Positions 3,983 to 23,623 of a DNA stretch of 64,000 nt are shown one piece after another. The DNA comes from a virus (lineage: Duplodnaviria; Heunggongvirae; Uroviricota; Caudoviricetes). The position numbers and the translations under genes are program-made. The stretch is from the IMG/VR virus record IMGVR_UViG_2698536484_000026; one strand, given 5' to 3'. Numbering within the stretch: position 1 is the first letter of the stretch; every line of letters begins with the position of its first letter. The notes below the pieces were generated by a model. The model had not been told where the DNA came from. It did no database searches and worked only from the letters and a program-made list of their open reading frames with translations.

Positions 3983-4527
3983 TTGCTACAGGGGTGGACA
4001 TCGAATCAACAGGTCTTGATTTCCTCTCAGGCCATAAAATCATTGAAATCGCAATGGTGAAGTACGAAATTGAGACACAGACAATGGTTGATAGTTTTGT
4101 AATGCGGTTCAACCCGCGTCGCAGTATCGATCCGAAAGCGCAAGCGGTACACGGCATCAGTCTTGAAGATTTAGCCGCCGAGCCGTTACTAGCCGATCAC
4201 GCTTCATCTGTCGCTTCGTATCTCTCTTCTTCCGATATTTGGATAGCCCACAACGGCGAAGCGTTCGATATTCCGTTTATTAGGCATGAGCTGAAAAGTT
4301 ACGGTTTTTCGCTTCCAGACATCCCATTGATTGACACTCTATTTTCCCTGTGGGCCACAGAAGACGGTAAACGTCCCCGCCTTGAAGAGTTGGCCTTCTC
4401 TCTTGGCTTTATATACGATCATGCCAAAGCACATAGTGCCTTATATGACACAAACTTAATGATGCAATGCTTCTTTAAGGCACGTAATAAGTACGGATTT
4501 TTTAAATTACCCTCTGAAATTGTGTAA
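3979..4527 (+). CDS. DnaQ-like 3'-5' exonuclease (DEDDh)
   Basis: Exo I DIESTGLD, Exo II IAHNGEAFDIPFI, Exo III HSALYDT. Confidence 0.7.
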   Translation: MIATGVDIESTGLDFLSGHKIIEIAMVKYEIETQTMVDSFVMRFNPRRSIDPKAQAVHGISLEDLAAEPLLADHASSVASYLSSSDIWIAHNGEAFDIPFIRHELKSYGFSLPDIPLIDTLFSLWATEDGKRPRLEELAFSLGFIYDHAKAHSALYDTNLMMQCFFKARNKYGFFKLPSEIV

Positions 4528-4533
4528 AACAAA

Positions 4534-4570
4534 AGCCTACTTTAAAAAGTTTAAAGTAGGCTTTCTTTTA
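4534..4570 (+). terminator. Rho-independent terminator-like hairpin
   Basis: agcctacttta/taaagtaggct stem followed by T-rich run. Confidence 0.5.
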
Positions 4571-4685
4571 AAGAACAGTCGCCTTTCAATCATTTCCTGC
4601 CTGTATTTAATACTTTTCCGCCTGATAGGTTTAGTCAAAATGTAGCCATCGAAACGCAAATGCAACTAAACAGAAGGAGACTTAC

Positions 4686-5495
4686 ATGAGTTCGGTTGAA
4701 AATGTAATGACAAATGATGATCTGGATGAGCTGACAGCCATGTTGCAATCACTTGATGAACCAGTAAAAAAAGCTGCACAGGTTGAAAATACTGATGATA
4801 TTGACGATCTGCTTCTCGGCCTCGATGCTGGCGTAGCCATGAGTTCTGATGATGTTGCCGAAGAACTGTTCAATGAAGAAAAAGCAGGTGATTTCAGCTC
4901 CGCTTTAAATGAGTTGGAGTTAGCTCATGAGCCTATAAACGTAATTAAGGCTGAAAGTGTTGAATCTGCCGAAAACGAGCCAGAACAATTGGGATTTATT
5001 GAGGTTGAAGAGTGTGTTGAGGTTAATGATGAATTAAAAGTTCAACAGTCAAATGATAGCAATACAAATAAAAAAGCTCGTACTGCAAGAGGTCCTCGTT
5101 TTACTTTAAGTGATAAAGATTATTTGTTTTTCAATAAAGCAGGCTTAGAAAAAGATATTTTCTTAGACGCTTACGAAAACGCGCCTGTCAAAGCAAAGGA
5201 TAAGATATTAAACCTTCTTAATTGGTTTAGCGGAGGTCCAGATATTAGTGTTTACACGGTAATTTCCATGAGACACCTTCTCACAGAAAAGAAGGCTACA
5301 AGTAATAGTATTAAGATTGCTTTAATGAGCAATCCAGAAAAACCGTATCCGCTTAACACTGCGTCAACTCAGGCTGGGCAAATGATGGCTGTATTTCCAG
5401 CTACAGGAATTGCTGTTAGAGACGGTGGAAATCTAACATTGAACGAAGAATCACCGATCGTTAAGAAGTTTGTCGCGGAGTACACTATTGGATGA
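4686..5495 (+). CDS. Hypothetical protein with highly acidic N-terminal half
   Basis: About 120 aa D/E-rich N-terminus, basic C-terminus; RBS GGAGA upstream. Confidence 0.45.
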   Translation: MSSVENVMTNDDLDELTAMLQSLDEPVKKAAQVENTDDIDDLLLGLDAGVAMSSDDVAEELFNEEKAGDFSSALNELELAHEPINVIKAESVESAENEPEQLGFIEVEECVEVNDELKVQQSNDSNTNKKARTARGPRFTLSDKDYLFFNKAGLEKDIFLDAYENAPVKAKDKILNLLNWFSGGPDISVYTVISMRHLLTEKKATSNSIKIALMSNPEKPYPLNTASTQAGQMMAVFPATGIAVRDGGNLTLNEESPIVKKFVAEYTIG

Positions 5496-11974: not shown

Positions 11975-12679
11975 ATGAGCAACCTCCAGTTAGAGCATTT
12001 TAACGTCACAGGCCGTTCTGATTTTTCTTTCAAGTTTACATTGAAAGGTTATGCAGAGGATGCGGTAGGCCAGATCATTATTGATAAAGGCATCGTTAAG
12101 TTTGAGGGGGATTTTGATGAATCCGCGAAAACATTCATAGACTTCGTTGCCAAACGTTGGAGCGAGCAATGGAAAGACCTGGAAAAGCGCGCTAATGAGT
12201 TTGATCGGTTCATGGATGCAATGGATACAGCAAAAGAGGCTCTTGCTGCCGGGACTCCGTTAGATCTGGAGTCACTTTTCAACGGCGAAGTGGCCTCTGC
12301 GATGTTCGCCACCATGTTCGCGGGTGAGTTCGTCCGCAGCGGTGCCAAAAACTACCTTGAGCTGGATTACAACGTCCCTGCAATTGGCGATTTCGTCGTT
12401 ACCATCCAACGCAAAGAAGGTAAGACGCCAGGTGAACGCGTCGCAGAGCTTGAGGCTGTTGTGGATCAGCGTAACGGAGAGTGTGACCGTTTGATCAACG
12501 AGCTTCATGCACTTCGGGAAGAAAGAATATGCGCGGGTAGCAATACACGTAATGCTGCGGATATCTACTTCCAGTTAGTTGAGGAATGCCAGATTCCACC
12601 AGGTGGCTCTCTTGTCGATTACGTCAGACATTTAATGGCGGAAGTTAACTCCAGCCATAAAGATGGTGAGGTGCGCTGA
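11975..12679 (+). CDS. Hypothetical protein
   Basis: ORF with RBS; stop overlaps next start. Confidence 0.45.
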   Translation: MSNLQLEHFNVTGRSDFSFKFTLKGYAEDAVGQIIIDKGIVKFEGDFDESAKTFIDFVAKRWSEQWKDLEKRANEFDRFMDAMDTAKEALAAGTPLDLESLFNGEVASAMFATMFAGEFVRSGAKNYLELDYNVPAIGDFVVTIQRKEGKTPGERVAELEAVVDQRNGECDRLINELHALREERICAGSNTRNAADIYFQLVEECQIPPGGSLVDYVRHLMAEVNSSHKDGEVR

Positions 12680-13059
12680 TGTTTGGCATTGACGCACAGC
12701 GTATAGCCGCTTTTGCAAAAAGCCCTCTTGATAATCCCTTGTCTCGTAGTGAGCAAATGGAGCTGGCAAGGCTTTTTCTTCATATTCAAAAACAGGCAGA
12801 CGTTTTCAATAACATGCCTGATCAACCTATTCTGGATGGTCACATCCAGATGGTCATTAACAGTCATGAGAAAGGCTGGGCTGCAATCGTCCCCTGCACA
12901 ATTACATACAAGTTGGCGAAAGAGGTTCAAGAGTTTCGAAAAGCCAGTGTCGAATCGGAGTCTACCAAAGCCGCAATAAACACTCTTATTCGCATGGGGT
13001 TCACATGGGACGGTGGAGCTTACTGGCAAGCACCTCAACCCATTTTATCCGGCAATTAG
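12679..13059 (+). CDS. Hypothetical protein
   Basis: Coupled to preceding ORF; terminator-like hairpin 13090-13110 follows. Confidence 0.4.
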   Translation: MFGIDAQRIAAFAKSPLDNPLSRSEQMELARLFLHIQKQADVFNNMPDQPILDGHIQMVINSHEKGWAAIVPCTITYKLAKEVQEFRKASVESESTKAAINTLIRMGFTWDGGAYWQAPQPILSGN

Positions 13060-13178
13060 GCGCTACAAATCCTTCTGCATGAATAAATAAAGGCCATAAC
13101 TTATGGCCTTAAATAAATTGTTTTCTGCCTTTTCTTATTTGTGAAAATAACCACAACTAGAAAACAACGGAGTTAAGA

Positions 13179-13820
13179 ATGTCTAGTATTTCCGAAGCAC
13201 ATATGTTCGCCGCTGGCGCTCATGGTGGCGTTGGTCAGAAAAGAAAATATACAGGTGAAGATTATATAAATCATCCGGTTGCTGTCCGAGAGATCGTTGC
13301 ATTGCATGACGGAACCGTGGAGATGCAGATCGCGGCGCTTCTGCATGATGTGGTCGAAGACACAAATGTAACCATAGAGATGGTTCGTGATCACTTCGGT
13401 GAGCGCGTAGCTGAAATGGTTCTGGCTCTGACCAACATTGCAAGGCCAGAAGACGGCAATCGAATACAGCGTTTCATCATCAATGTCCGGGAGCTGGAGC
13501 AAAATCTCAACATGCAGACGCGCATGATCAAGCTGGCTGACCTGCTGGACAATACCTCTTCTATCGTGAGTCGCGATCCTGAGTTTTCAGCTATCTACCT
13601 TGCAGAGAAAGAACTGATGCTGGACGTACTCTTTAACGGCAAAGAGATTGGTGCCAATGCTGATGTTGTCGAGTACATGGAGAGGGTAGGTATAGAACAC
13701 CCGTTGCTATTAAGCGCAATGGCGAAAGTGACAGAAGGTATTGCGCTTCTGAAACCGGTACACATCAAACGTTATGAAAAACACAAATCGCTGATCTGGA
13801 GCGCGTGGGAGGCTGCATGA
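13179..13820 (+). CDS. RelA/SpoT-type HD-domain hydrolase (putative (p)ppGpp hydrolase)
   Basis: AHGGVGQKRKYTGEDYINHPVAV...AALLHDVVEDT matches RelA/SpoT HD hydrolase domain. Confidence 0.65.
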   Translation: MSSISEAHMFAAGAHGGVGQKRKYTGEDYINHPVAVREIVALHDGTVEMQIAALLHDVVEDTNVTIEMVRDHFGERVAEMVLALTNIARPEDGNRIQRFIINVRELEQNLNMQTRMIKLADLLDNTSSIVSRDPEFSAIYLAEKELMLDVLFNGKEIGANADVVEYMERVGIEHPLLLSAMAKVTEGIALLKPVHIKRYEKHKSLIWSAWEAA

Positions 13821-14359
13821 AGGTCGAAAAAATAGATGTTCTTTCCTTTGTGCTGACGGATCTGGAACGCCTCGATCCGGTTCGAGTGATGATTGAAAAC
13901 TACGAACCTGGTAAGGGAAGAATCACCATCACCTGCTACGGAAAAGCGTGGACTGCGGCTTGGTTTGCTATGGGCGGTGATGATGTGCAGACGTTCATCA
14001 AGCGAGTTAGCAACGACTATCTAATCGACAATTTCGACCCTCAACTGCTAAGCACGGTCGACGATGACAACGATGCAAATCTGCTTTTCGTGAAGTCAGA
14101 AATCATAAAGTTACGAAGAGAGAGAGAAATCGATGCTGTACAGGCTCGCGAAATGTGGGTCGAGGCGGAAAACGCAGATGATGTCAAAGAAAGCTGCTGT
14201 TGTCTCGGCATCGGTAACAAACTGCTGAATCTATTTGGTGATGATCCGTGGTATGCCGACTGGCCAACGATACCAAACCCGAAATACCAGTATCTGGAAC
14301 GCATTGTGAACGCGGTACGTGAAGGGCTGAAAGAGTTAGACAAGTTAGAGGCATCGTAA
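13817..14359 (+). CDS. Hypothetical protein
   Basis: ATG overlaps previous stop; part of coupled gene string. Confidence 0.4.
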   Translation: MKVEKIDVLSFVLTDLERLDPVRVMIENYEPGKGRITITCYGKAWTAAWFAMGGDDVQTFIKRVSNDYLIDNFDPQLLSTVDDDNDANLLFVKSEIIKLRREREIDAVQAREMWVEAENADDVKESCCCLGIGNKLLNLFGDDPWYADWPTIPNPKYQYLERIVNAVREGLKELDKLEAS

Positions 14360-14814
14360 TGAGAGAGAAAATCAAGAACCCGGTCGTCGTATTGTATAAA
14401 CGGGAAACCAGCGATTCTTATGCGGTATCCATCACTGATGGAAGCCAGAACATGCACGATGGTCTGCTAATGGCCTCCGTATCTCCTGATGATTCGGACT
14501 ACCCTTTCGCCACTTTCGCTATGGTTGGTTACTACATGGCTGCCGAAATTGAGAAGTTGCGGGCGCAGAGAGACGCATTAGCGGCGGAGAATGCAGCCCT
14601 GAAAGAATCTGAGCGAGCATTCGATGCGATGTGTGCCGAGGAACACGGAGATAATTGGGTTAGCGAATTAACGGAGACTCCAGCAACCGATGCTTTTCTG
14701 GCTGAAGTACGTGCGCAGGGCGTGGAGATGTTTGCTGAGTGCGCATACACACTTGAACATCATGATCACGCAGTAGCTTTTGCCGCTGAGCTTCGTACAG
14801 GAGCTAAACAGTGA
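14359..14814 (+). CDS. Hypothetical protein
   Basis: Coupled ORF. Confidence 0.4.
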   Translation: MREKIKNPVVVLYKRETSDSYAVSITDGSQNMHDGLLMASVSPDDSDYPFATFAMVGYYMAAEIEKLRAQRDALAAENAALKESERAFDAMCAEEHGDNWVSELTETPATDAFLAEVRAQGVEMFAECAYTLEHHDHAVAFAAELRTGAKQ

Positions 14815-15377
14815 ATGAGATTTACTACCTGACGTTACGTGAACGTTATTCACCAAAACCAGCGCCTAAATGCTCTGTTTGTGGCGAGGAAATGTCAATA
14901 CAGCGCATATCTGGAGCACATGTTGTTTATGCCTGTTCCGGTGAGGGTGATGACGGATATTTTAAGATAGGGCGTACTTTTGCAGACGAACATTATGAAA
15001 AATCACGCGTAACAGTAGTTGATGATAGTGATCCCGATGTGATTGCACTGCTGGACGAACTGGATAAAAGACAGCAACACATCCGACGTCTTGAGCAGGA
15101 GAACGTAGAGATGGCCCTAACGCTTGAGAAACTGCGTGTTGAGCTGGAGACCGTTAAACAGCGGGAAAAGGATCTGTTTATGGAAAATGTTCGACTTAAG
15201 TCAGGTATAGCAGGTCTGATACACCTCGGTATTCGATATGCGGATGTCGAAGTCATGAAAATAGCTGGAGATGCCCAGCTTTCTACTCCCTGTACTGACA
15301 GCATCATAAACAGTATTGCATCAGGCGTTTTCACCAAAGAGGGTCAGCATGATGAGAACAGTAGAAGTTCGCGCTGA
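14811..15377 (+). CDS. Hypothetical protein with CxxC...C zinc-ribbon-like N-terminus
   Basis: CSVCGEEMS...YACSG; coupled ORF. Confidence 0.4.
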   Translation: MNEIYYLTLRERYSPKPAPKCSVCGEEMSIQRISGAHVVYACSGEGDDGYFKIGRTFADEHYEKSRVTVVDDSDPDVIALLDELDKRQQHIRRLEQENVEMALTLEKLRVELETVKQREKDLFMENVRLKSGIAGLIHLGIRYADVEVMKIAGDAQLSTPCTDSIINSIASGVFTKEGQHDENSRSSR

Positions 15378-15537
15378 AGATGTAACCCCAGGTGATGTGG
15401 TCATAACATCTAAAGGCAAACGATGTGCGGTTAAATCTTTCTGGATGAACGGTGAAAAAGTGACTCTGTTCGGTACGGATGGTTCCGAAACTGATTATGA
15501 CTACGACGAATTGCTTGTTGTTGAGAGAGCTACCTAA
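15349..15537 (+). CDS. Hypothetical small protein
   Basis: Short ORF overlapping neighbours in operon. Confidence 0.3.
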   Translation: MMRTVEVRAEDVTPGDVVITSKGKRCAVKSFWMNGEKVTLFGTDGSETDYDYDELLVVERAT

Positions 15538-16073
15538 TGACCACCTTTACCAAAGAACAGTTAATCTCCCATGCACGCGAAAGCGTTAGTTATCTGGAAG
15601 ACTTGAAAGGACGTGTTAGTAAAGAAGGAGCGGACTGCAAAGTTGTTCATGAGATGGTTGAACGAGATCTAAAACTGGCTCGAATTGCACTGACCTCACT
15701 GGAGGCAGAGCCAGTGGCGTGGCTGGTAACACTCACAAAAAACGATCAGGAATCAGTCTCTATTATTTACCGTGACTGTGCAGAGAAAGATACATGGGTT
15801 CGGATACATGAGTCACTCGGTTCTGTCGCACATGTTGCCCCGCTTTACATGGCGCAGCCAGAACCGTCGAAGGAGGAGAAAGGACGTTCAGTCATCCAGG
15901 GTAAAGCCGATAATTCACCATTGCCGCGCTACCAGGTTATCGAATTAACAATGCTGGTTAAACAATTGGTCAGCCAACTGAAAAAAGCAAAACCTGATTG
16001 CAAATTACCGGATAGGGCAATGGATTATCTTTTGCGGAACGGACTGCTAAGTGTGGAGGATGCCTTACGATGA
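15537..16073 (+). CDS. Hypothetical protein
   Basis: Coupled ORF. Confidence 0.4.
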   Translation: MTTFTKEQLISHARESVSYLEDLKGRVSKEGADCKVVHEMVERDLKLARIALTSLEAEPVAWLVTLTKNDQESVSIIYRDCAEKDTWVRIHESLGSVAHVAPLYMAQPEPSKEEKGRSVIQGKADNSPLPRYQVIELTMLVKQLVSQLKKAKPDCKLPDRAMDYLLRNGLLSVEDALR

Positions 16074-16657
16074 TTGAAATGACAAAAGAAGAACTAACAC
16101 AGGCAACAAAGGATTACGGAAAAAAGCACATCGCACATCGTATGGCGAATGTGTTACTGGCCTTGTCTGAACAAAAGCCATCTGCGTTTGTAATGAAAGA
16201 TGATTTGGCCGATCCGGCAATTGTTTCGACTCCGGCATATTTAGATATTGAGGATGCGGAACAAAAAACGATTGGGGATATTGTCGCGCTTTATGCCGAT
16301 CCCTTTCCTGTCATCGGCGACACTACTGCTCTTGTGGACGATATTTTAAACATTCTCGCGCTTCTTGAGGCTGGCGATTGGTCAGAACATTGCACTAAAA
16401 CGGAGTTAGGCGGTCGGCTTGAAAGAGAGATTACACAACTTATTGGTGATGCCCAAAATGATTTGTCACCTGAGCATCTCCCCTGCGATGTAGTCCTTGT
16501 GCCAGGGATGAGGATACACGAAGGCGTCAGAACGAAAACATTATTAACCGCATTACAGAGAAGAGCCGAACTAAGCTCGCGGATAAAGTTGATGCCATCC
16601 AAAATATTTGATGTCGTCAAATTTACGCCATCGCAACATACTGAGAGAGATAAATGA
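16070..16657 (+). CDS. Hypothetical protein
   Basis: Coupled ORF. Confidence 0.4.
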   Translation: MIEMTKEELTQATKDYGKKHIAHRMANVLLALSEQKPSAFVMKDDLADPAIVSTPAYLDIEDAEQKTIGDIVALYADPFPVIGDTTALVDDILNILALLEAGDWSEHCTKTELGGRLEREITQLIGDAQNDLSPEHLPCDVVLVPGMRIHEGVRTKTLLTALQRRAELSSRIKLMPSKIFDVVKFTPSQHTERDK

Positions 16658-17286
16658 GCACGGTAGCGAAAGATCTCACAGAAGATATTCTCAATGAAAT
16701 TATTGCTGGTGCAAATACCTCGCTTGAGCAACTTCTTGCGTTAGCACTGAGAGCCGAACGTCGAGACAGAAATCGTTTTTATGAACGATTACCAGGGAAA
16801 CGACCAGATAGATCAGATGAAGAAGGTTGCGATATAGACTACATGGAGCCTTCAGAGATTTATCAACTTGGTAAAGATGACGGCTGGAACGCTTATCACG
16901 ATGCTGTGATGAAGTTGGATGAAAAAGTTAAACCTCTTTCTCGACCGGTAGATCACGGTTTCCGCGATAACTGCGAATGCTCTAGTTGCCAGACCACGGC
17001 CCGTATTTGTTCCGAATTGACAGATAAGTCCAGCCTAATCTACGAAGTTAATGTAGGCGGTAATACATGGGTCGAATGCACAAGAGCTGCATACGTAAGA
17101 GCAAAAGACAAGGGTGAATTAACCAGAGTTGTTGCCCATCACCCAAATAATGAGCTTAAAGATCACCAGATTAGAGAACTGGTGAATGAGTTGCGGGATA
17201 TTGCGGTTCAGTACCACGGAACGCAGCAATTGCGGGAGAAAATTGCCAGAGCAGTGAACAACTCAATTAGATCAGAAAGTATGTAG
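16654..17286 (+). CDS. Hypothetical protein (Cys-containing)
   Basis: Last gene of left + strand operon; hairpin 17302-17321 downstream. Confidence 0.4.
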   Translation: MSTVAKDLTEDILNEIIAGANTSLEQLLALALRAERRDRNRFYERLPGKRPDRSDEEGCDIDYMEPSEIYQLGKDDGWNAYHDAVMKLDEKVKPLSRPVDHGFRDNCECSSCQTTARICSELTDKSSLIYEVNVGGNTWVECTRAAYVRAKDKGELTRVVAHHPNNELKDHQIRELVNELRDIAVQYHGTQQLREKIARAVNNSIRSESM

Positions 17287-17720
17287 TCAATACAATAAAA
17301 TGGCCCCATTTGGATGGGGCCGGTAACAACTAGCATTATGGGCGCTGGTTGACGTACTCAATGATCGCTTCGATGATTGCGAACATAGGCGGCACGATTT
17401 TGAAAAGTAAGTTAAGCACTATAGGCCTCACTTAGTTTTATCGCACCTAGCTGCAAATACCTTTGAGCTTGCCTTTGCAGTTGCAATATCTGTAGTCGCC
17501 AGATACTTACGGCACGATTTCGAGTTAAGGTAAGGTTTTAGAGTCACCAAAAACCTGGACTTAAATCTTCTTTGAGAACAACGATGTTTGGTAAATGGTC
17601 ATTATTACCTAGCATGACGGCTCAACGTTTCTTGATGAATCCAGTACATTCGGTTAATCTTAGCTCAGTCGCCAGATACTTATGGCTCAGGAACAGAGGC
17701 GCAAACTCTGTTTCCTTTTA

Positions 17721-17753
17721 AAAAGCCCAGCCTAGTCAACTGGGCTTTTTTAA
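17721..17753. terminator. Bidirectional rho-independent terminator
   Basis: agcccag...ctgggct stem flanked by A-run upstream and TTTTTTA downstream. Confidence 0.5.
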
Positions 17754-18046
17754 TGTCCGTTTTTAACCAAATGTACCCACAATACCGCAACATCAGTGTC
17801 TTGCGAATTAAGATAGGATTTATAGAGACTATGTGCAAGTGCATAACTTTGTGGATAACTCGTAAAGGAAAAAGTGGTTTCCGCGGACATTAGTTCAGAC
17901 AAGGAGTCTGGGAAAGTCAATGGGAAGTAAAAATTTGTTAAAAATAACGTTTGTTGGAATTGTATATATTTATGCCTTTCAATAGTTAGCATCTTATTAA
18001 CATCTTTTTTAAGAGATAGAGTTCAAAAATATATAGCTTCAACATA

Positions 18047-18066
18047 TACTGTATGCATATACAGCA
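18047..18066 (+). promoter_or_regulatory. LexA (SOS) box
   Basis: TACTGTATGCATATACAGCA fits CTGT-N8-ACAG, 17 bp upstream of UmuD'-like start. Confidence 0.6.
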
Positions 18067-18082
18067 TTAAGAGGCGAGTATT

Positions 18083-18472
18083 ATGGGCTTCCCTTCTCCT
18101 GCGGCGGATTATGCTGAGAGCCGTATTTCTCTTGATCAGCAGATAATTAGACATCCTTCAGCGACCTACTTCATGAGGGCGGCTGATAGTCATCATCGTG
18201 AGGGAATATTGCAGGGTGCATTGCTGGTGGTCGATTCCTCACTGACTCCTGTTGATGGATCTCTTCTTGTATGTGCTCTGGATGGGGAATATCGCGTAAA
18301 AAGATACCGGAAGTATCCACGTCAGCATCTGGAGGATTTAAGAACTGGTAAGAAGGAAGCATTGCCAAAGGATGATGATGGATGCACGGGCAGCAATGCC
18401 GTGTTTGGTGTGATCACTCACATTATCAACGACGCAAGAAGTGGCGAGTTTGATGATTGTCCTGTGATGTAG
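18083..18472 (+). CDS. umuD: UmuD'-like S24 peptidase-fold protein, N-terminally truncated (P1 HumD-like); no umuC partner
   Basis: GFPSPAADY...HPSATYF...DS...VK aligns to UmuD from about residue 25 onward; in-frame stop 15 nt upstream fixes the start. Confidence 0.7.
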   Translation: MGFPSPAADYAESRISLDQQIIRHPSATYFMRAADSHHREGILQGALLVVDSSLTPVDGSLLVCALDGEYRVKRYRKYPRQHLEDLRTGKKEALPKDDDGCTGSNAVFGVITHIINDARSGEFDDCPVM

Positions 18473-18483
18473 GAGAACTGTTT

Positions 18484-18510
18484 AGGTGGTGCATTGCACC
18501 ACCTTTTTAT
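18484..18510 (+). terminator. Rho-independent terminator
   Basis: Perfect 9-bp stem aggtggtgc/gcaccacct followed by TTTTAT. Confidence 0.55.
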
Positions 18511-19610
18511 CACACTGCGCGGAATGCGATTTCGCCAGGTATTACTTCACCTTGCCAATACATTTGGGCAGCAACGCGATCTGCGAGGTCACGATAAATA
18601 GCCGTAAATTCGCTATCTGGACGACTAATAACGGTTGGTGTTCCGTTATCCAGATCTTCACGAAGAGAGATATGAAGTGGCATTTGGCCTAACAACTGCG
18701 TGTTGTATTTCTCGGCCAGTTTCTGTGCGCCACCGGTGCCAAAAATTGGCTCGTGATGACCGCAGTTACTGCAAATATGCACACTCATGTTTTCGACGAT
18801 ACCTAGTACCGGCACTTCGACTTTTTCGAACATCACAATGCCTTTCTTCGCATCGATCAGCGCGATGTCTTGCGGCGTAGTTACCACAACCGCACCAGTT
18901 ACAGGAATGTTCTGCGCCAGCGTCAATTGAATATCACCAGTGCCCGGCGGCATATCGAGAACGAGATAGTCCAGATCAGGCCACAGTGTTTCCTGCAACA
19001 TCTGCATCAACGCCTTGCTGGCCATCGGTCCACGCCACACCATTGCATTGTCGTCGGTGACCAGATAACCAATAGAGTTGGTTGCCAGGCCATGAGACAT
19101 GATAGGTGCCATGTGAGTACCGTCCGGTGAGGTTGGACGTTGGTTTTCCGCGCCCAGCATGGTTGGAATTGATGGACCATAGATATCGGCATCCAAAATA
19201 CCAACTTTCGCACCTTCAGCAGCCAAAGCCAGTGCCAAGTTTACTGCTGTGGACGATTTGCCTACACCGCCCTTGCCTGAGCTTACGGCGATAATATTCT
19301 TAACACCATTAATGCCTGGTTGGTTTTTGACGCGCTTAAGCGTGGCAATGTTGTACGACAGCTTCCAGTCAATAGCCTTTGCGCCAGTGATACGGAGCAG
19401 ATCACCACTACATTGCTCTTTCAGGTCTTCAAAAGGCTTATTCCACACGAAAGGCATGATTAGTTCGACATGCAGTGTGTCATCCATCAACGCAACATGG
19501 TGTAACGCTTTAAGCGTAGTCAGGTTGTGTTTCAGGGTTGGGTGCTGAAAATTAGCCAGCGTACCGGCTACCATTGCTCTCAGGGCATCCGGCGATTTGG
19601 ACTCGCTCAT
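18510..19610 (-). CDS. apbC: Iron-sulfur cluster carrier ATPase ApbC/Mrp
   Basis: Near full-length match to enterobacterial Mrp: AVSSGKGGVGKSSTAVNLALALA, MPPGTGD, C-terminal CSNCGH. Confidence 0.9.
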   Translation of the reverse strand: MSESKSPDALRAMVAGTLANFQHPTLKHNLTTLKALHHVALMDDTLHVELIMPFVWNKPFEDLKEQCSGDLLRITGAKAIDWKLSYNIATLKRVKNQPGINGVKNIIAVSSGKGGVGKSSTAVNLALALAAEGAKVGILDADIYGPSIPTMLGAENQRPTSPDGTHMAPIMSHGLATNSIGYLVTDDNAMVWRGPMASKALMQMLQETLWPDLDYLVLDMPPGTGDIQLTLAQNIPVTGAVVVTTPQDIALIDAKKGIVMFEKVEVPVLGIVENMSVHICSNCGHHEPIFGTGGAQKLAEKYNTQLLGQMPLHISLREDLDNGTPTVISRPDSEFTAIYRDLADRVAAQMYWQGEVIPGEIAFRAV

Positions 19611-19767
19611 CCCGTCTCCTTTATTTTAATTTGCGCAATTGTCGCCTTGTAGTGTACTCCAGCTGCGACATTTAATCATTTATGAGAAATGCTGTTATCA
19701 CATGGCAGACATAAGGCCATTTTGTTACTATCAAGCCCCTTTTCACTACAAAGAAGTAATGCCTACT

Positions 19768-21801
19768 ATGACCCAAGTCGCGAAGAAAATTCTGGTGACG
19801 TGCGCGCTGCCGTACGCTAACGGCTCAATCCACCTCGGCCATATGCTGGAGCACATCCAGGCTGATGTCTGGGTTCGTTACCAGCGAATGCGCGGCCACG
19901 AGGTTAATTTCATCTGTGCCGACGATGCCCACGGTACGCCGATCATGCTGAAAGCACAGCAACTTGGTATCACACCGGAGCAGATGATTGGCGAAATGAG
20001 TCAGGAACACCAGACTGATTTCGCAGGCTTTAACATCAGCTATGACAACTATCACTCGACGCACAGCGAAGAGAACCGTCAGTTGTCTGAGCTTATCTAT
20101 ACTCGCCTGAAAGAGAACGGTTTTATTAAAAATCGCACTATCTCTCAGTTGTACGACCCGGAAAAAGGCATGTTCCTGCCGGATCGTTTTGTGAAAGGCA
20201 CCTGCCCGAAATGTAAAGCGCCAGATCAATACGGCGATAACTGTGAAGTTTGCGGCGCGACCTACAGCCCGACTGAACTGATCGAGCCGAAATCGGTGGT
20301 TTCTGGTGCTACCCCGGTAATGCGTGATTCTGAACACTTCTTCTTTGATCTGCCCTCTTTCAGCGAAATGTTGCAGGCATGGACCCGCAGCGGTGCGTTG
20401 CAGGAGCAGGTGGCAAACAAAATGCAGGAGTGGTTTGAATCTGGTCTGCAACAGTGGGATATCTCCCGCGACGCACCTTACTTCGGTTTTGAAATTCCGA
20501 ACGCGCCGGGTAAATATTTCTACGTCTGGCTGGACGCACCGATTGGCTACATGGGTTCCTTCAAGAATCTGTGCGACAAGCGCGGCGACACTACCAGCTT
20601 CGATGAATACTGGAAGAAAGACTCCACCGCCGAGCTGTACCACTTCATCGGTAAAGATATCGTTTACTTCCACAGCCTGTTCTGGCCTGCCATGCTGGAA
20701 GGCAGCAACTTCCGCAAGCCGACCAACCTGTTTGTTCACGGCTATGTGACGGTGAACGGCGCGAAGATGTCCAAGTCTCGCGGCACCTTTATTAAAGCCA
20801 GCACCTGGTTGAATCATTTTGACGCTGACAGCCTGCGTTACTACTACACTGCGAAACTCTCTTCGCGCATTGATGATATCGATCTCAACCTGGAGGATTT
20901 CGTTCAGCGTGTGAATGCCGATATCGTGAACAAAGTGGTTAACCTGGCGTCCCGTAACGCTGGCTTTATCAATAAGCGTTTTGACGGTGTGCTGGCAAGC
21001 GAGCTGGCTGACCCGCAGTTGTACAAAACCTTCACTGATGCCGCTGAAGTGATTGGTGAAGCGTGGGAAAGCCGCGAATTTGGTAAAGCTATCCGTGAAA
21101 TCATGGCACTGGCTGACCTGGCTAACCGCTATGTCGACGAGCAGGCTCCTTGGGTAGTCGCAAAACAGGAAGGTCGCGATGCTGACCTGCAGGCGATTTG
21201 CTCAATGGGCATCAACCTGTTCCGCGTGCTGATGACTTACCTGAAACCGGTACTGCCGAAACTGACAGAACGTGCGGAAGCATTCCTGAATACGGAACTG
21301 ACCTGGGATGGCATCCAGCAACCGCTGCTGGGCCATAAAGTGAATCCGTTCAAAGCACTGTATAACCGTATCGACATGAAACAGGTGGAAGCACTGGTGG
21401 AAGCGTCTAAAGAAGAAGTGAAAGCTACTGCCGCGCCAGTTACTGGCCCGCTGGCAGACGACCCGATTCAGGAAACCATCACCTTTGACGACTTTGCCAA
21501 AGTTGACCTGCGCGTGGCACTGATCGAAAACGCAGAGTTTGTTGAAGGTTCTGACAAACTGCTGCGCCTGACGCTGGATCTCGGCGGTGAAAAACGCAAT
21601 GTCTTCTCAGGCATCCGTTCTGCTTATCCAGACCCACAGGCACTGATTGGTCGTCACACCATTATGGTGGCTAACCTGGCTCCGCGTAAGATGCGCTTCG
21701 GCATCTCCGAAGGTATGGTGATGGCTGCTGGCCCCGGCGGGAAAGATATCTTCCTGTTAAGCCCGGATGCTGGTGCTAAACCTGGCCACCAGGTTAAGTA
21801 A
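19768..21801 (+). CDS. metG: Methionine--tRNA ligase
   Basis: [26 protein letters not shown] (HIGH), KMSKS, CPKC...C zinc knuckles, C-terminal tRNA-binding domain; 677 aa from ATG 19768. Confidence 0.95.
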
Positions 21802-21820
21802 TTAAGCAACCTCTGTTCGC

Positions 21821-21850
21821 AATGCCCGGCAACACGCTGGGCATTTTCAT
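21821..21850 (+). terminator. Terminator-like hairpin after metG
   Basis: atgccc...gggcat stem followed by TTTT. Confidence 0.5.
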
Positions 21851-21962
21851 ATAGACACAATCCCTCCTGATTTACACAAGCCCTAAAACAATTTGTTTTC
21901 TACCTTTTGTTGATTGAGATAATAAGCCGCATAAGAAAACAAATTGTTTCGGAGTGGTTGAA

Positions 21963-22262
21963 ATGTTGAACATTACCCAAGCCTACCAGGTGGCATTGAT
22001 CAGTTCATCTCATACATCAGAGGAAGATGCTCGCCGATTCATGATCGCAAGCAATGAGCTGGATTGGGTTTCACAAATTGATGGCGGTTGTATTGTCCAC
22101 GCCGGGTTACAGGATGATGTCTGGAAAGACGACTTGCGTCGATATGGTATATCCGAAGGCGCGATTGCTAACATTCAGAAAGTACTTGATGTAGGCTTTG
22201 ACTCTGTACATTTTGATTGTGGTGCGCCGATCGTTGAAGGGCTTGAGTGCTGGTGTTGGTAG
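21963..22262 (+). CDS. Hypothetical protein
   Basis: Preceded by conserved promoter-like element and AAGAAAACAAATTGTTT motif. Confidence 0.4.
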   Translation: MLNITQAYQVALISSSHTSEEDARRFMIASNELDWVSQIDGGCIVHAGLQDDVWKDDLRRYGISEGAIANIQKVLDVGFDSVHFDCGAPIVEGLECWCW

Positions 22263-22393
22263 AGTGTATAAGCGGATCAATGAGTTACGGAAACAGTTAA
22301 TAATGAGGAGCTTGTAATAAGCTGTATACCCTAGAAAAGCTAGACTAGGGAATAAAATGACGTGAAACTGGGCGAGACAGTAAATAATTCCGA

Positions 22394-23623
22394 ATGATAA
22401 TTGAACAAATAACCCCTTGCTCGGAGCTTGGAATGACTGATACCGCTTTTTCAAAATCGTTACAAAAAGAAGTCGATCCTGAGCAGTACTTGGCGCTAAA
22501 GAATTTAGATGACAGCTCGGTTCATGCTATTGCCCGTGACGATATCATCTGCCCCATTTGCAAAGTTGGAGGTGGTTCGTTCGTTAGAGCCACAAGGAAT
22601 GGTGGCTATCACAAGAAGGCGCATTTCAGATTTACCGGTGAAGATGGTCAAGGCCATCATCCATCATGTGATTTCTATGGAGATAGACTAACATCTGAGG
22701 TGAAGCAGCACCTTGTCTCATTCACAAAAGATCGAACAAAGTATTCGCAGGTAATACGAAAGCTGGTCTGTGCCGGCATACAGGAAGGGATATTTACTCA
22801 AGAAAAAATGTGGCAGATGAGGGAATGGTTCTTCAATAAGCGAAAGGATTCCACATTTGAAATATGGTTAGAAAGCGAGCATTTAGACTGGCTTTATTAT
22901 ATTAGTGGGTTACGTGATGCATATCTAGCATGGACAACTCCTGATATTCTACCTTTCGCGCCCATTCAGGTTACTGTGCCTGGTTTTTCTTGGAAGCGTG
23001 CGATTGACAAAGAGGTGCTAAGAGTTCACATCAAGACTCTCCAGCAATTGCGTGAAATTTCAGTCTCACATAGAGACATTGCTGTAATCTTAGAACACAT
23101 AAACAATAATCGTGACCGCACAATTCTCGATCCATCGCATTTGGAGGACGAGATAAGTAAGACCTATAAGCTTACTAGTTTTGTGATGGGCAATTACATT
23201 GAGTTTCAGACAAAAACGGTTAGCGACAGAGCATACGGGGAAGCTAAGTTTCTGGCATTTGCAGCACTTTTGTTGTTCGTGTCAGATTGGGACCTCAACA
23301 TTGCTATTGGTAAGTTTTCTAAGATTGCCAGAGTGAAGGAGGTTGATGACATGCTGGCTGGTAATTTCATTGGTCTTAATCCTTACTTCCGATACGACCT
23401 GGCTAATGCAGTGAAGAGATTGCAGGATAACTGGCCGATTGAATACCAAGAGTTGGAGCATTGGAATGTTGAGAAATCCATGCGTGACGCATATGAAAAG
23501 TGGCGTGCGACAGAGCCTGAATTCGCTCCACCCCTATTGCCAGACTTGTATATTGCCAAACATGAGAAAGAAGTCGCACAAGACGAGCAAGTCAGGCAGT
23601 GGATTAAGAACGGGGATGTTTGA
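22394..23623 (+). CDS. Hypothetical 409-aa protein with CPICK...HHPSC zinc-ribbon-like motif
   Basis: Long ORF with AT-rich upstream region; no recognised family. Confidence 0.45.
   Translation: MIIEQITPCSELGMTDTAFSKSLQKEVDPEQYLALKNLDDSSVHAIARDDIICPICKVGGGSFVRATRNGGYHKKAHFRFTGEDGQGHHPSCDFYGDRLTSEVKQHLVSFTKDRTKYSQVIRKLVCAGIQEGIFTQEKMWQMREWFFNKRKDSTFEIWLESEHLDWLYYISGLRDAYLAWTTPDILPFAPIQVTVPGFSWKRAIDKEVLRVHIKTLQQLREISVSHRDIAVILEHINNNRDRTILDPSHLEDEISKTYKLTSFVMGNYIEFQTKTVSDRAYGEAKFLAFAALLLFVSDWDLNIAIGKFSKIARVKEVDDMLAGNFIGLNPYFRYDLANAVKRLQDNWPIEYQELEHWNVEKSMRDAYEKWRATEPEFAPPLLPDLYIAKHEKEVAQDEQVRQWIKNGDV

Follow-up and report, generated by a model that had tools for sequence, protein, structure and literature searches.

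A predicted SOS-regulated humD cassette in an SSU5-like phage-plasmid of Escherichia coli

Organisation of the humD locus

The locus lies in a window of 64,000 nucleotides (the whole stretch of DNA that was analysed) and consists of one short gene, humD, with candidate signals for the start and the end of its transcription. The features are listed in order of position.

17729–17752, plus strand: terminator-like hairpin followed by a T-run, which would end the upstream operon and delimit the humD transcription unit on its left
18022–18050, plus strand: candidate sigma-70-like promoter (−35 TTCAAA, 17-nt spacer, −10 TATACT; 9 out of 12 matches)
18047–18066, no strand assigned: LexA operator (SOS box) TACTGTATGCATATACAGCA, with binding predicted from its consensus match and conserved position
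18069–18074, plus strand: Shine-Dalgarno sequence AAGAGG, read directly from the sequence, 8 nt ahead of the ATG
18083–18472, plus strand: humD coding sequence (ATG start, 129 aa), encoding a pre-truncated UmuD′ homologue
18484–18509, plus strand: intrinsic terminator with a 9-bp GC-rich stem AGGTGGTGC/GCACCACCT (stem 18484–18504), followed by TTTTT

The position of the start codon is the basis for everything that follows. The initial annotation had considered that a longer protein might be made from an overlooked upstream start. We looked for one and could exclude it, because an in-frame TAA lies at 18068–18070, five codons upstream of the ATG. Longer entries do exist in the databases (148–223 aa). 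In these, an unrelated N-terminus precedes an internal MGFPSPA or MDFPSPA, or the Met is missing (P0063, P0088), which suggests over-extended gene calls or disrupted starts.

The terminator downstream of the gene is placed between the stop codon of humD and the convergent stop codon of apbC. Its hairpin has a folding energy of −15.3 kcal/mol (z = −3.86), and none of 200 shuffled sequences was as stable. The corresponding values for the upstream hairpin (17729–17746 without the rest of the T-run) are −12.4 kcal/mol and z = −2.85. With a promoter/operator region, an open reading frame, and a terminator all present, the humD unit is self-contained. No non-coding RNA was found in the window by a scan at the Rfam gathering thresholds and a tRNA scan.

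The protein belongs to the HumD family

The protein matches the NCBIfam equivalog model NF051876 ("HumD family translesion DNA polymerase") from end to end, with residues 1–129 aligned to positions 1–129 of a profile of 129, and scores 219.8 bits for a cutoff of 120. It also matches PHROG 811 ("UmuD-like protein"; E = 2.7e-54) and, as an S24 domain, the Pfam model Peptidase_S24 (PF00717; 37.9 bits, cutoff 23.3). It is 91.5% identical to HumD of P1 (AAQ14073.1), 100% identical to a protein of Escherichia phage Cyrano, and identical to the RefSeq protein WP_000506720.1, to which PGAP gives the same name as the NCBIfam model. Even the 621-bp region around the gene is 100% identical to the E. coli plasmid that carries WP_000506720.1. 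These matches indicate that the window protein is an orthologue of HumD. The gene itself is not a discovery: P1 humD was characterised in 1999, and this copy of it is already catalogued and named in RefSeq.

The alignments to UmuD place the start of the protein precisely. Residues 2–116 align with residues 25–136 of full-length UmuD (8gmt_B), and residues 2–118 with residues 1–114 of chain 1umu_A from a crystal of UmuD′ (E = 6.7e-23). The first residue of that chain pairs with residue 2 of the window protein, so that Met1 replaces Cys24, and Gly2 corresponds to Gly25, with which processed UmuD′ begins. The protein has neither a cleavable N-terminal arm nor a Cys/Ala-Gly site. This bears out the initial annotation, which had placed the start at the Cys24–Gly25 cleavage position of UmuD. 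Its further proposal, that the protein is made directly in the processed form like P1 HumD, agrees with the NF051876 score and with the identity to the P1 protein given above.

The comparison with E. coli UmuD′ (residues 25–139; PDB 1UMU, 1AY9, 1I4V, 8GMT) points to the same fold (E = 7e-23, around 42% identity). The two proteins would have the same N-terminal residue after processing, and both genes have a similarly spaced operator and appear to be SOS-controlled. They differ in that the window HumD would be made directly, without RecA-mediated cleavage, and is not in an operon with umuC. It also has a 4-residue insertion near residues 100–103 and an acidic C-terminal extension of around 11 residues. 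We discarded an AlphaFold2 model built from the family alignment of 96 sequences (pLDDT 41.5, pTM 0.31); it is poor because the alignment is too shallow, with all members at least 67% identical.

Databases also carry the labels "S24 family peptidase" and "LexA family transcriptional regulator" for this protein, and the Peptidase_S24 match accords with them. Taken literally, they would make it a self-cleaving peptidase or a LexA-like repressor. However, a LexA-type N-terminal winged-helix DNA-binding domain is absent, and 129 aa leave no room for one. The protein begins one residue past the cleavage site. It scores 27.2 bits with the LexA model TIGR00498 (cutoff 110.95), aligned only to LexA positions 91–166 in the C-terminal part, and 87 bits with the model of the autoproteolytic UmuD, NF007621 (cutoff 110). 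With no cleavage site, no DNA-binding domain, and both models below their cutoffs, we rejected the two labels.

A single LexA box precedes the gene

On the plus strand, the box TACTGTATGCATATACAGCA (18047–18066) is followed by TTAAGAGGCGAGTATT and then by the ATG at 18083. It differs from the LexA consensus TACTGTATATATATACAGTA at three positions. No other site in the 64-kb window has three mismatches or fewer, and no such site arose in any of 100 dinucleotide shuffles. The window has 24 CTG-N10-CAG sites, of which the runner-up has eight mismatches; hence, there are no further LexA boxes in the window. The initial annotation had described a well-formed LexA box 17 bp upstream of the gene: the box holds, but its distance to the ATG is 16 nt. 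The box aligns with the annotated LexA site of P1 humD, and the 20-mer is one nucleotide apart from the 20-mer at the lexA binding site that is annotated in phiKO2 (feature 555–575).

The spacing is like that of the umuDC operator of E. coli K-12, which lies 18 nt from the umuD ATG. Because of this, the geometry at humD appears to be what an in-frame loss of codons 2–24 would leave.

The −10 element of the candidate promoter, TATACT, covers the first four nucleotides of the box at its left edge. The promoter scan found one site for 1.9 in the shuffles, by itself no better than chance, so that the candidate is plausible only because of where it lies with respect to the LexA box and the start codon. 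LexA binding and promoter activity at humD are both predictions drawn from the match of the box to the consensus and from its conserved position.

The cassette is conserved across very different temperate phages

We compared 11 contexts of humD: the window, P1, D6, N15, phiKO2, HK639, BTP1, HK140, Hafnia yong1, Aeromonas pAEv1818, and Enterobacter MII_003. The open reading frame starts at the position of UmuD Gly25 in all 11, and with MGFPSPA in 8, the exceptions being phiKO2 (GTG start), BTP1 (MEFPSPA), and Aeromonas pAEv1818 (MGMPKFASPA). A LexA box with two to four mismatches is present upstream in every context, at 14–44 nt in 10 out of 11. The remaining one, HK140, has its box 262 nt upstream of humD, ahead of a small co-oriented ORF. 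In the records of P1 and phiKO2, LexA binding sites are annotated upstream of the gene. The same small, presumably SOS-controlled cassette is thereby found in very different temperate phages (P1, N15, lambdoid, P22-like, and SSU5-like).

The "UmuD-like" proteins of N15 (gp26), phiKO2 (gp23), HK639, HK140, and BTP1 are 62%–71% identical to the window protein. They share with it the pre-truncated start, the LexA box, the EFDDCPV tail, and the lack of umuC. They differ at the positions of the Ser/Lys dyad of UmuD: the Ser60 position is a Thr in N15, phiKO2, HK639, and HK140, and the Lys97 position is a Met in HK639.

The similarity to P1 is closer. Both HumD proteins have 129 residues, start with MGFPSPAADY, and end in the same C-terminal tail. 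Both genes have a LexA box at an equivalent position (19 nt from the ATG in P1, 16 nt in the window), and both are orphans without umuC on a plasmid prophage. According to the literature, LexA regulates P1 humD, which belongs to a humD-phd-doc cluster. In contrast, the element in the window is SSU5-like rather than P1-like, and the window locus lacks the neighbours that humD has in P1 (hot, lxr, and phd-doc); upstream it borders on a DnaA-box segment, and downstream on a captured apbC-metG block. DNA homology to P1 extends from around 10 nt before the LexA box to the humD stop codon. The nucleotide identity of the two genes is only around 83%, with dS of about 1, which implies an old divergence from P1 and not a recent transfer.

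The ratios of nonsynonymous to synonymous substitution rates (dN/dS) of humD are 0.043 relative to P1 and 0.064 relative to D6, at dS of around 0.7–1.0, and point to strong purifying selection. At this synonymous divergence, such values argue that the gene is neither a remnant nor recently acquired from P1. The possibility of a remnant has to be weighed, because the gene is an orphan without umuC and because P1 humD was found to be non-essential for lytic growth of P1 in a CRISPRi screen. The locus would then be a decaying piece of umuDC, and the LexA box a leftover or a chance match without function. A dN/dS of 0.04 at saturating synonymous divergence speaks against this, as do the conservation of the start, the box, and the box-to-ATG spacing across unrelated phages, the presence of the gene's own terminator, and the uniqueness of the box in the window and relative to the shuffles. 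We consider the remnant extremely improbable, and effectively refuted by the selection on the gene and the conservation of the cassette.

A further case concerns how the cassette is assembled. The sister SSU5-like Escherichia phage PhiR41_1 (L016 1440–1510) encodes a HumD that is 98% identical to that of the window, yet the region upstream of its gene is P1-like, with the LexA box TACTGTACAGATAAACAGTA, and the ATG is the exact point from which its DNA is homologous to the window. This break shows that the operator/promoter and the coding segments recombined independently.

Two classes of UmuD homologues and the fate of the Ser/Lys dyad

Ser36 and Lys73 of the window protein occupy the positions of Ser60 and Lys97 of UmuD. 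Both residues of the dyad are therefore present, in a degraded context: the GDSM motif of UmuD has become A-D-S-H, one residue short, with Met61 replaced by His and Gly58 lost (the alignments differ on whether it is deleted or replaced with Ala). The close family (131 sequences) varies at the first of these positions, with Ser in 78, Thr in 49, and another residue in 4. The second is a Lys in 124.

To these we added diverged homologues, i.e., hits with an intact core from 1.84 billion cluster representatives. The proteins with an Ala/Cys-Gly site make up the N-extended, full-length class (40 representatives). Both Ser and Lys are kept in 35 of these 40 full-length UmuDs vs. none of the 17 pre-truncated homologues (Fisher p = 2e-10). 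The initial annotation had treated a loss of the dyad as grounds for abandoning the HumD reading. As none of the 17 pre-truncated homologues keeps both residues, that test is invalid. The dyad would be dispensable once the protein is made pre-cleaved, and its retention in the window protein appears uninformative on catalysis.

The same counts bear on the S24 peptidase and LexA-like repressor introduced above. The presence of Ser36 and Lys73 is in favour of such a protein. Against it stand the degraded GDSM motif, the lack of the complete dyad in all 17 diverged pre-truncated relatives, and the frequent replacement of the Ser in the close family. Together with the missing domain and the low model scores, this makes a self-cleaving peptidase or a repressor very unlikely.

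Operons of the umuDC type on mobile elements also encode UmuD homologues with the S24 fold. Examples are those of Klebsiella phage ST846-OXA48phi9.2, Salmonella phage Oslo, Cronobacter ENT39118, and Morganella IME1369_01, and the mucAB and rumAB types. Unlike the window locus, they carry umuC immediately downstream, and their UmuD is full-length: it has the Cys/Ala-Gly site, its G[DS]SM and Lys are intact, and it ends without an acidic tail. Four phage-borne umuDC operons bear out this contrast in the length of UmuD, the intact G[DS]SM and Lys, and the position of umuC.

More broadly, UmuD homologues in phages and metagenomes (L019–L023; representatives P0121–P0269) fall into two classes. The full-length class has the Ala/Cys-Gly cleavage site, intact GDSM and Lys, and a short C-terminus. 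The pre-truncated class starts at MGFPSPA, has a decayed dyad and often an acidic tail, and its members with known context are orphans lacking umuC. Pantoea phage G19 has an orphan truncated form without the acidic tail. The decay of the dyad in pre-truncated forms and the restriction of the acidic tail to them may be undescribed.

Absence of umuC and proposed role of the cassette

The initial annotation had noted that no umuC or other polV partner accompanies the gene in the window. This was confirmed by a tblastn search with K-12 UmuC, which gave no match in the window at E ≤ 10. The same search over four loci tiling the whole of the closest complete plasmid (NZ_JBWDPU010000001.1) gave no match at E ≤ 10 either, and no Y-family polymerase is annotated in that plasmid. 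A chromosomal umuC is present in 5423 out of 5426 complete E. coli genomes.

We propose, with a probability of around 0.85, that the locus is a self-contained humD cassette that acts like P1 HumD and is accessory cargo of an SSU5-like phage-plasmid of E. coli. In an undamaged cell, host LexA would sit on the operator, over the −10 element and the likely transcription start, and keep humD off. Upon DNA damage, RecA would become active, LexA would cleave itself, and humD would be transcribed. The product would already be UmuD′-like when made, since it lacks the N-terminal arm and would not have to be cleaved with the help of RecA. A HumD dimer would then join the SOS-induced UmuC of the host in a Pol V-like translesion polymerase, from which both the cell and the prophage, which replicates autonomously, would gain tolerance of damage along with mutagenesis. 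This route would bypass the slow cleavage checkpoint and would dispense with the N-terminal segment of UmuD that bears degradation signals. The cassette would thus supply an already activated accessory subunit of Pol V and depend on the UmuC of the host. Such a cassette would be relevant to stress-induced mutagenesis in lysogens of phage-plasmids, including those that carry resistance genes; the window also encodes the dihydrofolate reductase DfrA51 (see below).

The P1 protein reportedly substitutes for UmuD′, in that it forms a dimer, binds UmuC and the RecA filament, and restores SOS mutagenesis. Against the proposal, it is also reported to be poorly expressed; given this and its non-essentiality in P1, any physiological benefit is hypothetical. 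The interaction of the window HumD with UmuC and RecA, and complementation by it, are expected by analogy with the published work on P1 HumD. By its title, that work presents P1 HumD as a functional homologue of UmuD′ that facilitates SOS mutagenesis (McLenigan et al. 1999, J Bacteriol 181:7005). A literature search pairing UmuD with SSU5 or with phage-plasmids found, among the papers listed, none that joins them.

The acidic C-terminal tail

A simple model of HumD as a substitute for UmuD′ leaves the near-invariant EFDDCPV tail unexplained. In the window protein the tail reads EFDDCPVM (residues 122–129). It belongs to the C-terminal extension of HumD, which is absent from UmuD, and few parts of the family are as conserved as its core E-F-D-D-C-P-V: across 96 sequences, E122 and D124 are invariant, and F123, D125, C126, P127, and V128 are conserved in at least 90%. 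Among the diverged homologues, an acidic tail is present in 7 of the 17 pre-truncated vs. none of the 40 full-length representatives (Fisher p = 7e-5).

The tip of E. coli SSB ends in ...DFDDDIPF, and variant HumD tails end in ...EFDDTPF or ...FEFHDNLPF. This resemblance raises the possibility, which we hold to be unlikely, that the tail is a docking motif giving HumD a partner and a function beyond those of UmuD′, e.g., by bringing host UmuC to the replisome of the phage-plasmid or to SSB-interacting proteins. HumD would then be more than a ready-made UmuD′. In the same doubtful category we place the broader idea that HumD does something other than, or in addition to, replacing UmuD′: the tail could dock HumD or a HumD–UmuC complex to SSB-binding proteins or to a replisome with the element's own RecA and DnaE, or HumD could modulate the SOS response or recombination of the host. 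The conservation of the tail and its distribution between the two classes are in favour, and the closest plasmid does encode its own RecA and DnaE, although the latter is disrupted in that record. Against it, the likeness to SSB is an apparent one, over a motif of eight residues. The last residue of the tail varies (M, I, L, K, or F), whereas the SSB tip requires the Phe at its end. The P1 protein, moreover, is presented in the title of the 1999 paper as a functional UmuD′ homologue that facilitates SOS mutagenesis. The resemblance of the tail to SSB is therefore a lead and not a result, because the motif is short and its final residue variable.

The RecA homologue and the DnaE of the closest plasmid (L004) lie outside the window, at 4413–5486 and 12211–15099, and the disruption of DnaE there is by IS100.

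The host element and its mosaic neighbourhood

The major capsid protein shares 93.8% identity with its counterpart in Salmonella phage SSU5; the element is therefore an SSU5-like phage-plasmid, here of E. coli. In blocks of 93%–99.7% identity, the window matches a circular E. coli plasmid of around 115 kb. This closest plasmid encodes RepB, ParB, nrdAB, thyA, dfrA51, a DnaB-like helicase, a primase, a ligase, dnaE, recA, terminase, portal, capsid, and tail.

The region around humD (window 14500–22400) has a narrower distribution. It has no match in SSU5 itself or in the Klebsiella relatives, and is common only to an E. coli sub-lineage (Cyrano, CMS-2020a, PhiR41_1). It is a mosaic of Ea22-like genes, a short segment resembling the P1 upfO/DnaA-box region, humD, and the apbC-metG block. 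This last block contains full-length apbC (18510–19610, minus strand) and metG (19768–21801, plus strand) in the divergent arrangement of the chromosome, both above their NCBIfam equivalog cutoffs. It is around 90% identical in DNA to the copy present in every E. coli chromosome and was found at 223 places in plasmids. With this block, the cell would have both its methionyl-tRNA synthetase and its Fe-S carrier in a second version, encoded on a mobile element.

Upstream of humD, an ORF of 80 aa (17750–17992, minus strand) has a full-length match to phrog_28987 (E = 1.5e-39). We considered it as a divergent LexA-controlled gene, comparable to lxr in P1 or to dinI, which lies across the box in phiKO2 and HK140. 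We rejected it as probably non-coding, because its substitutions relative to two homologues are even over the codon positions (10/13/13), and of the codon changes 19 are nonsynonymous and 5 synonymous. Hence, in contrast to phiKO2 and HK140, the window has no credible divergent gene across the box. Within this ORF, the segment 17834–17960 has its homologue in the upfO region of P1, for which the annotation gives "two predicted DnaA boxes", and it contains the only perfect DnaA box of the window, TTATCCACA, at 17850–17858 (minus strand). Instead of a gene, this could be a DNA element with a part in regulation or replication.

Elsewhere in the window, positions 1577–2053 encode the trimethoprim-resistant dihydrofolate reductase DfrA51 (335.2 bits, cutoff 322), beside thymidylate synthase and nrdAB. 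The presence of dfrA50 and dfrA51 in phage-plasmids has already been published (PMC12217456). Five stretches of the window do not align with the closest complete plasmid (3184–4348, 13154–14405, 22254–23639, 29886–32314, and 61433–62050) and appear to be variable cargo regions of the phage-plasmid. That plasmid has insertions of IS2 and IS100, and at the position of the IS2 the window has an unaligned gap.
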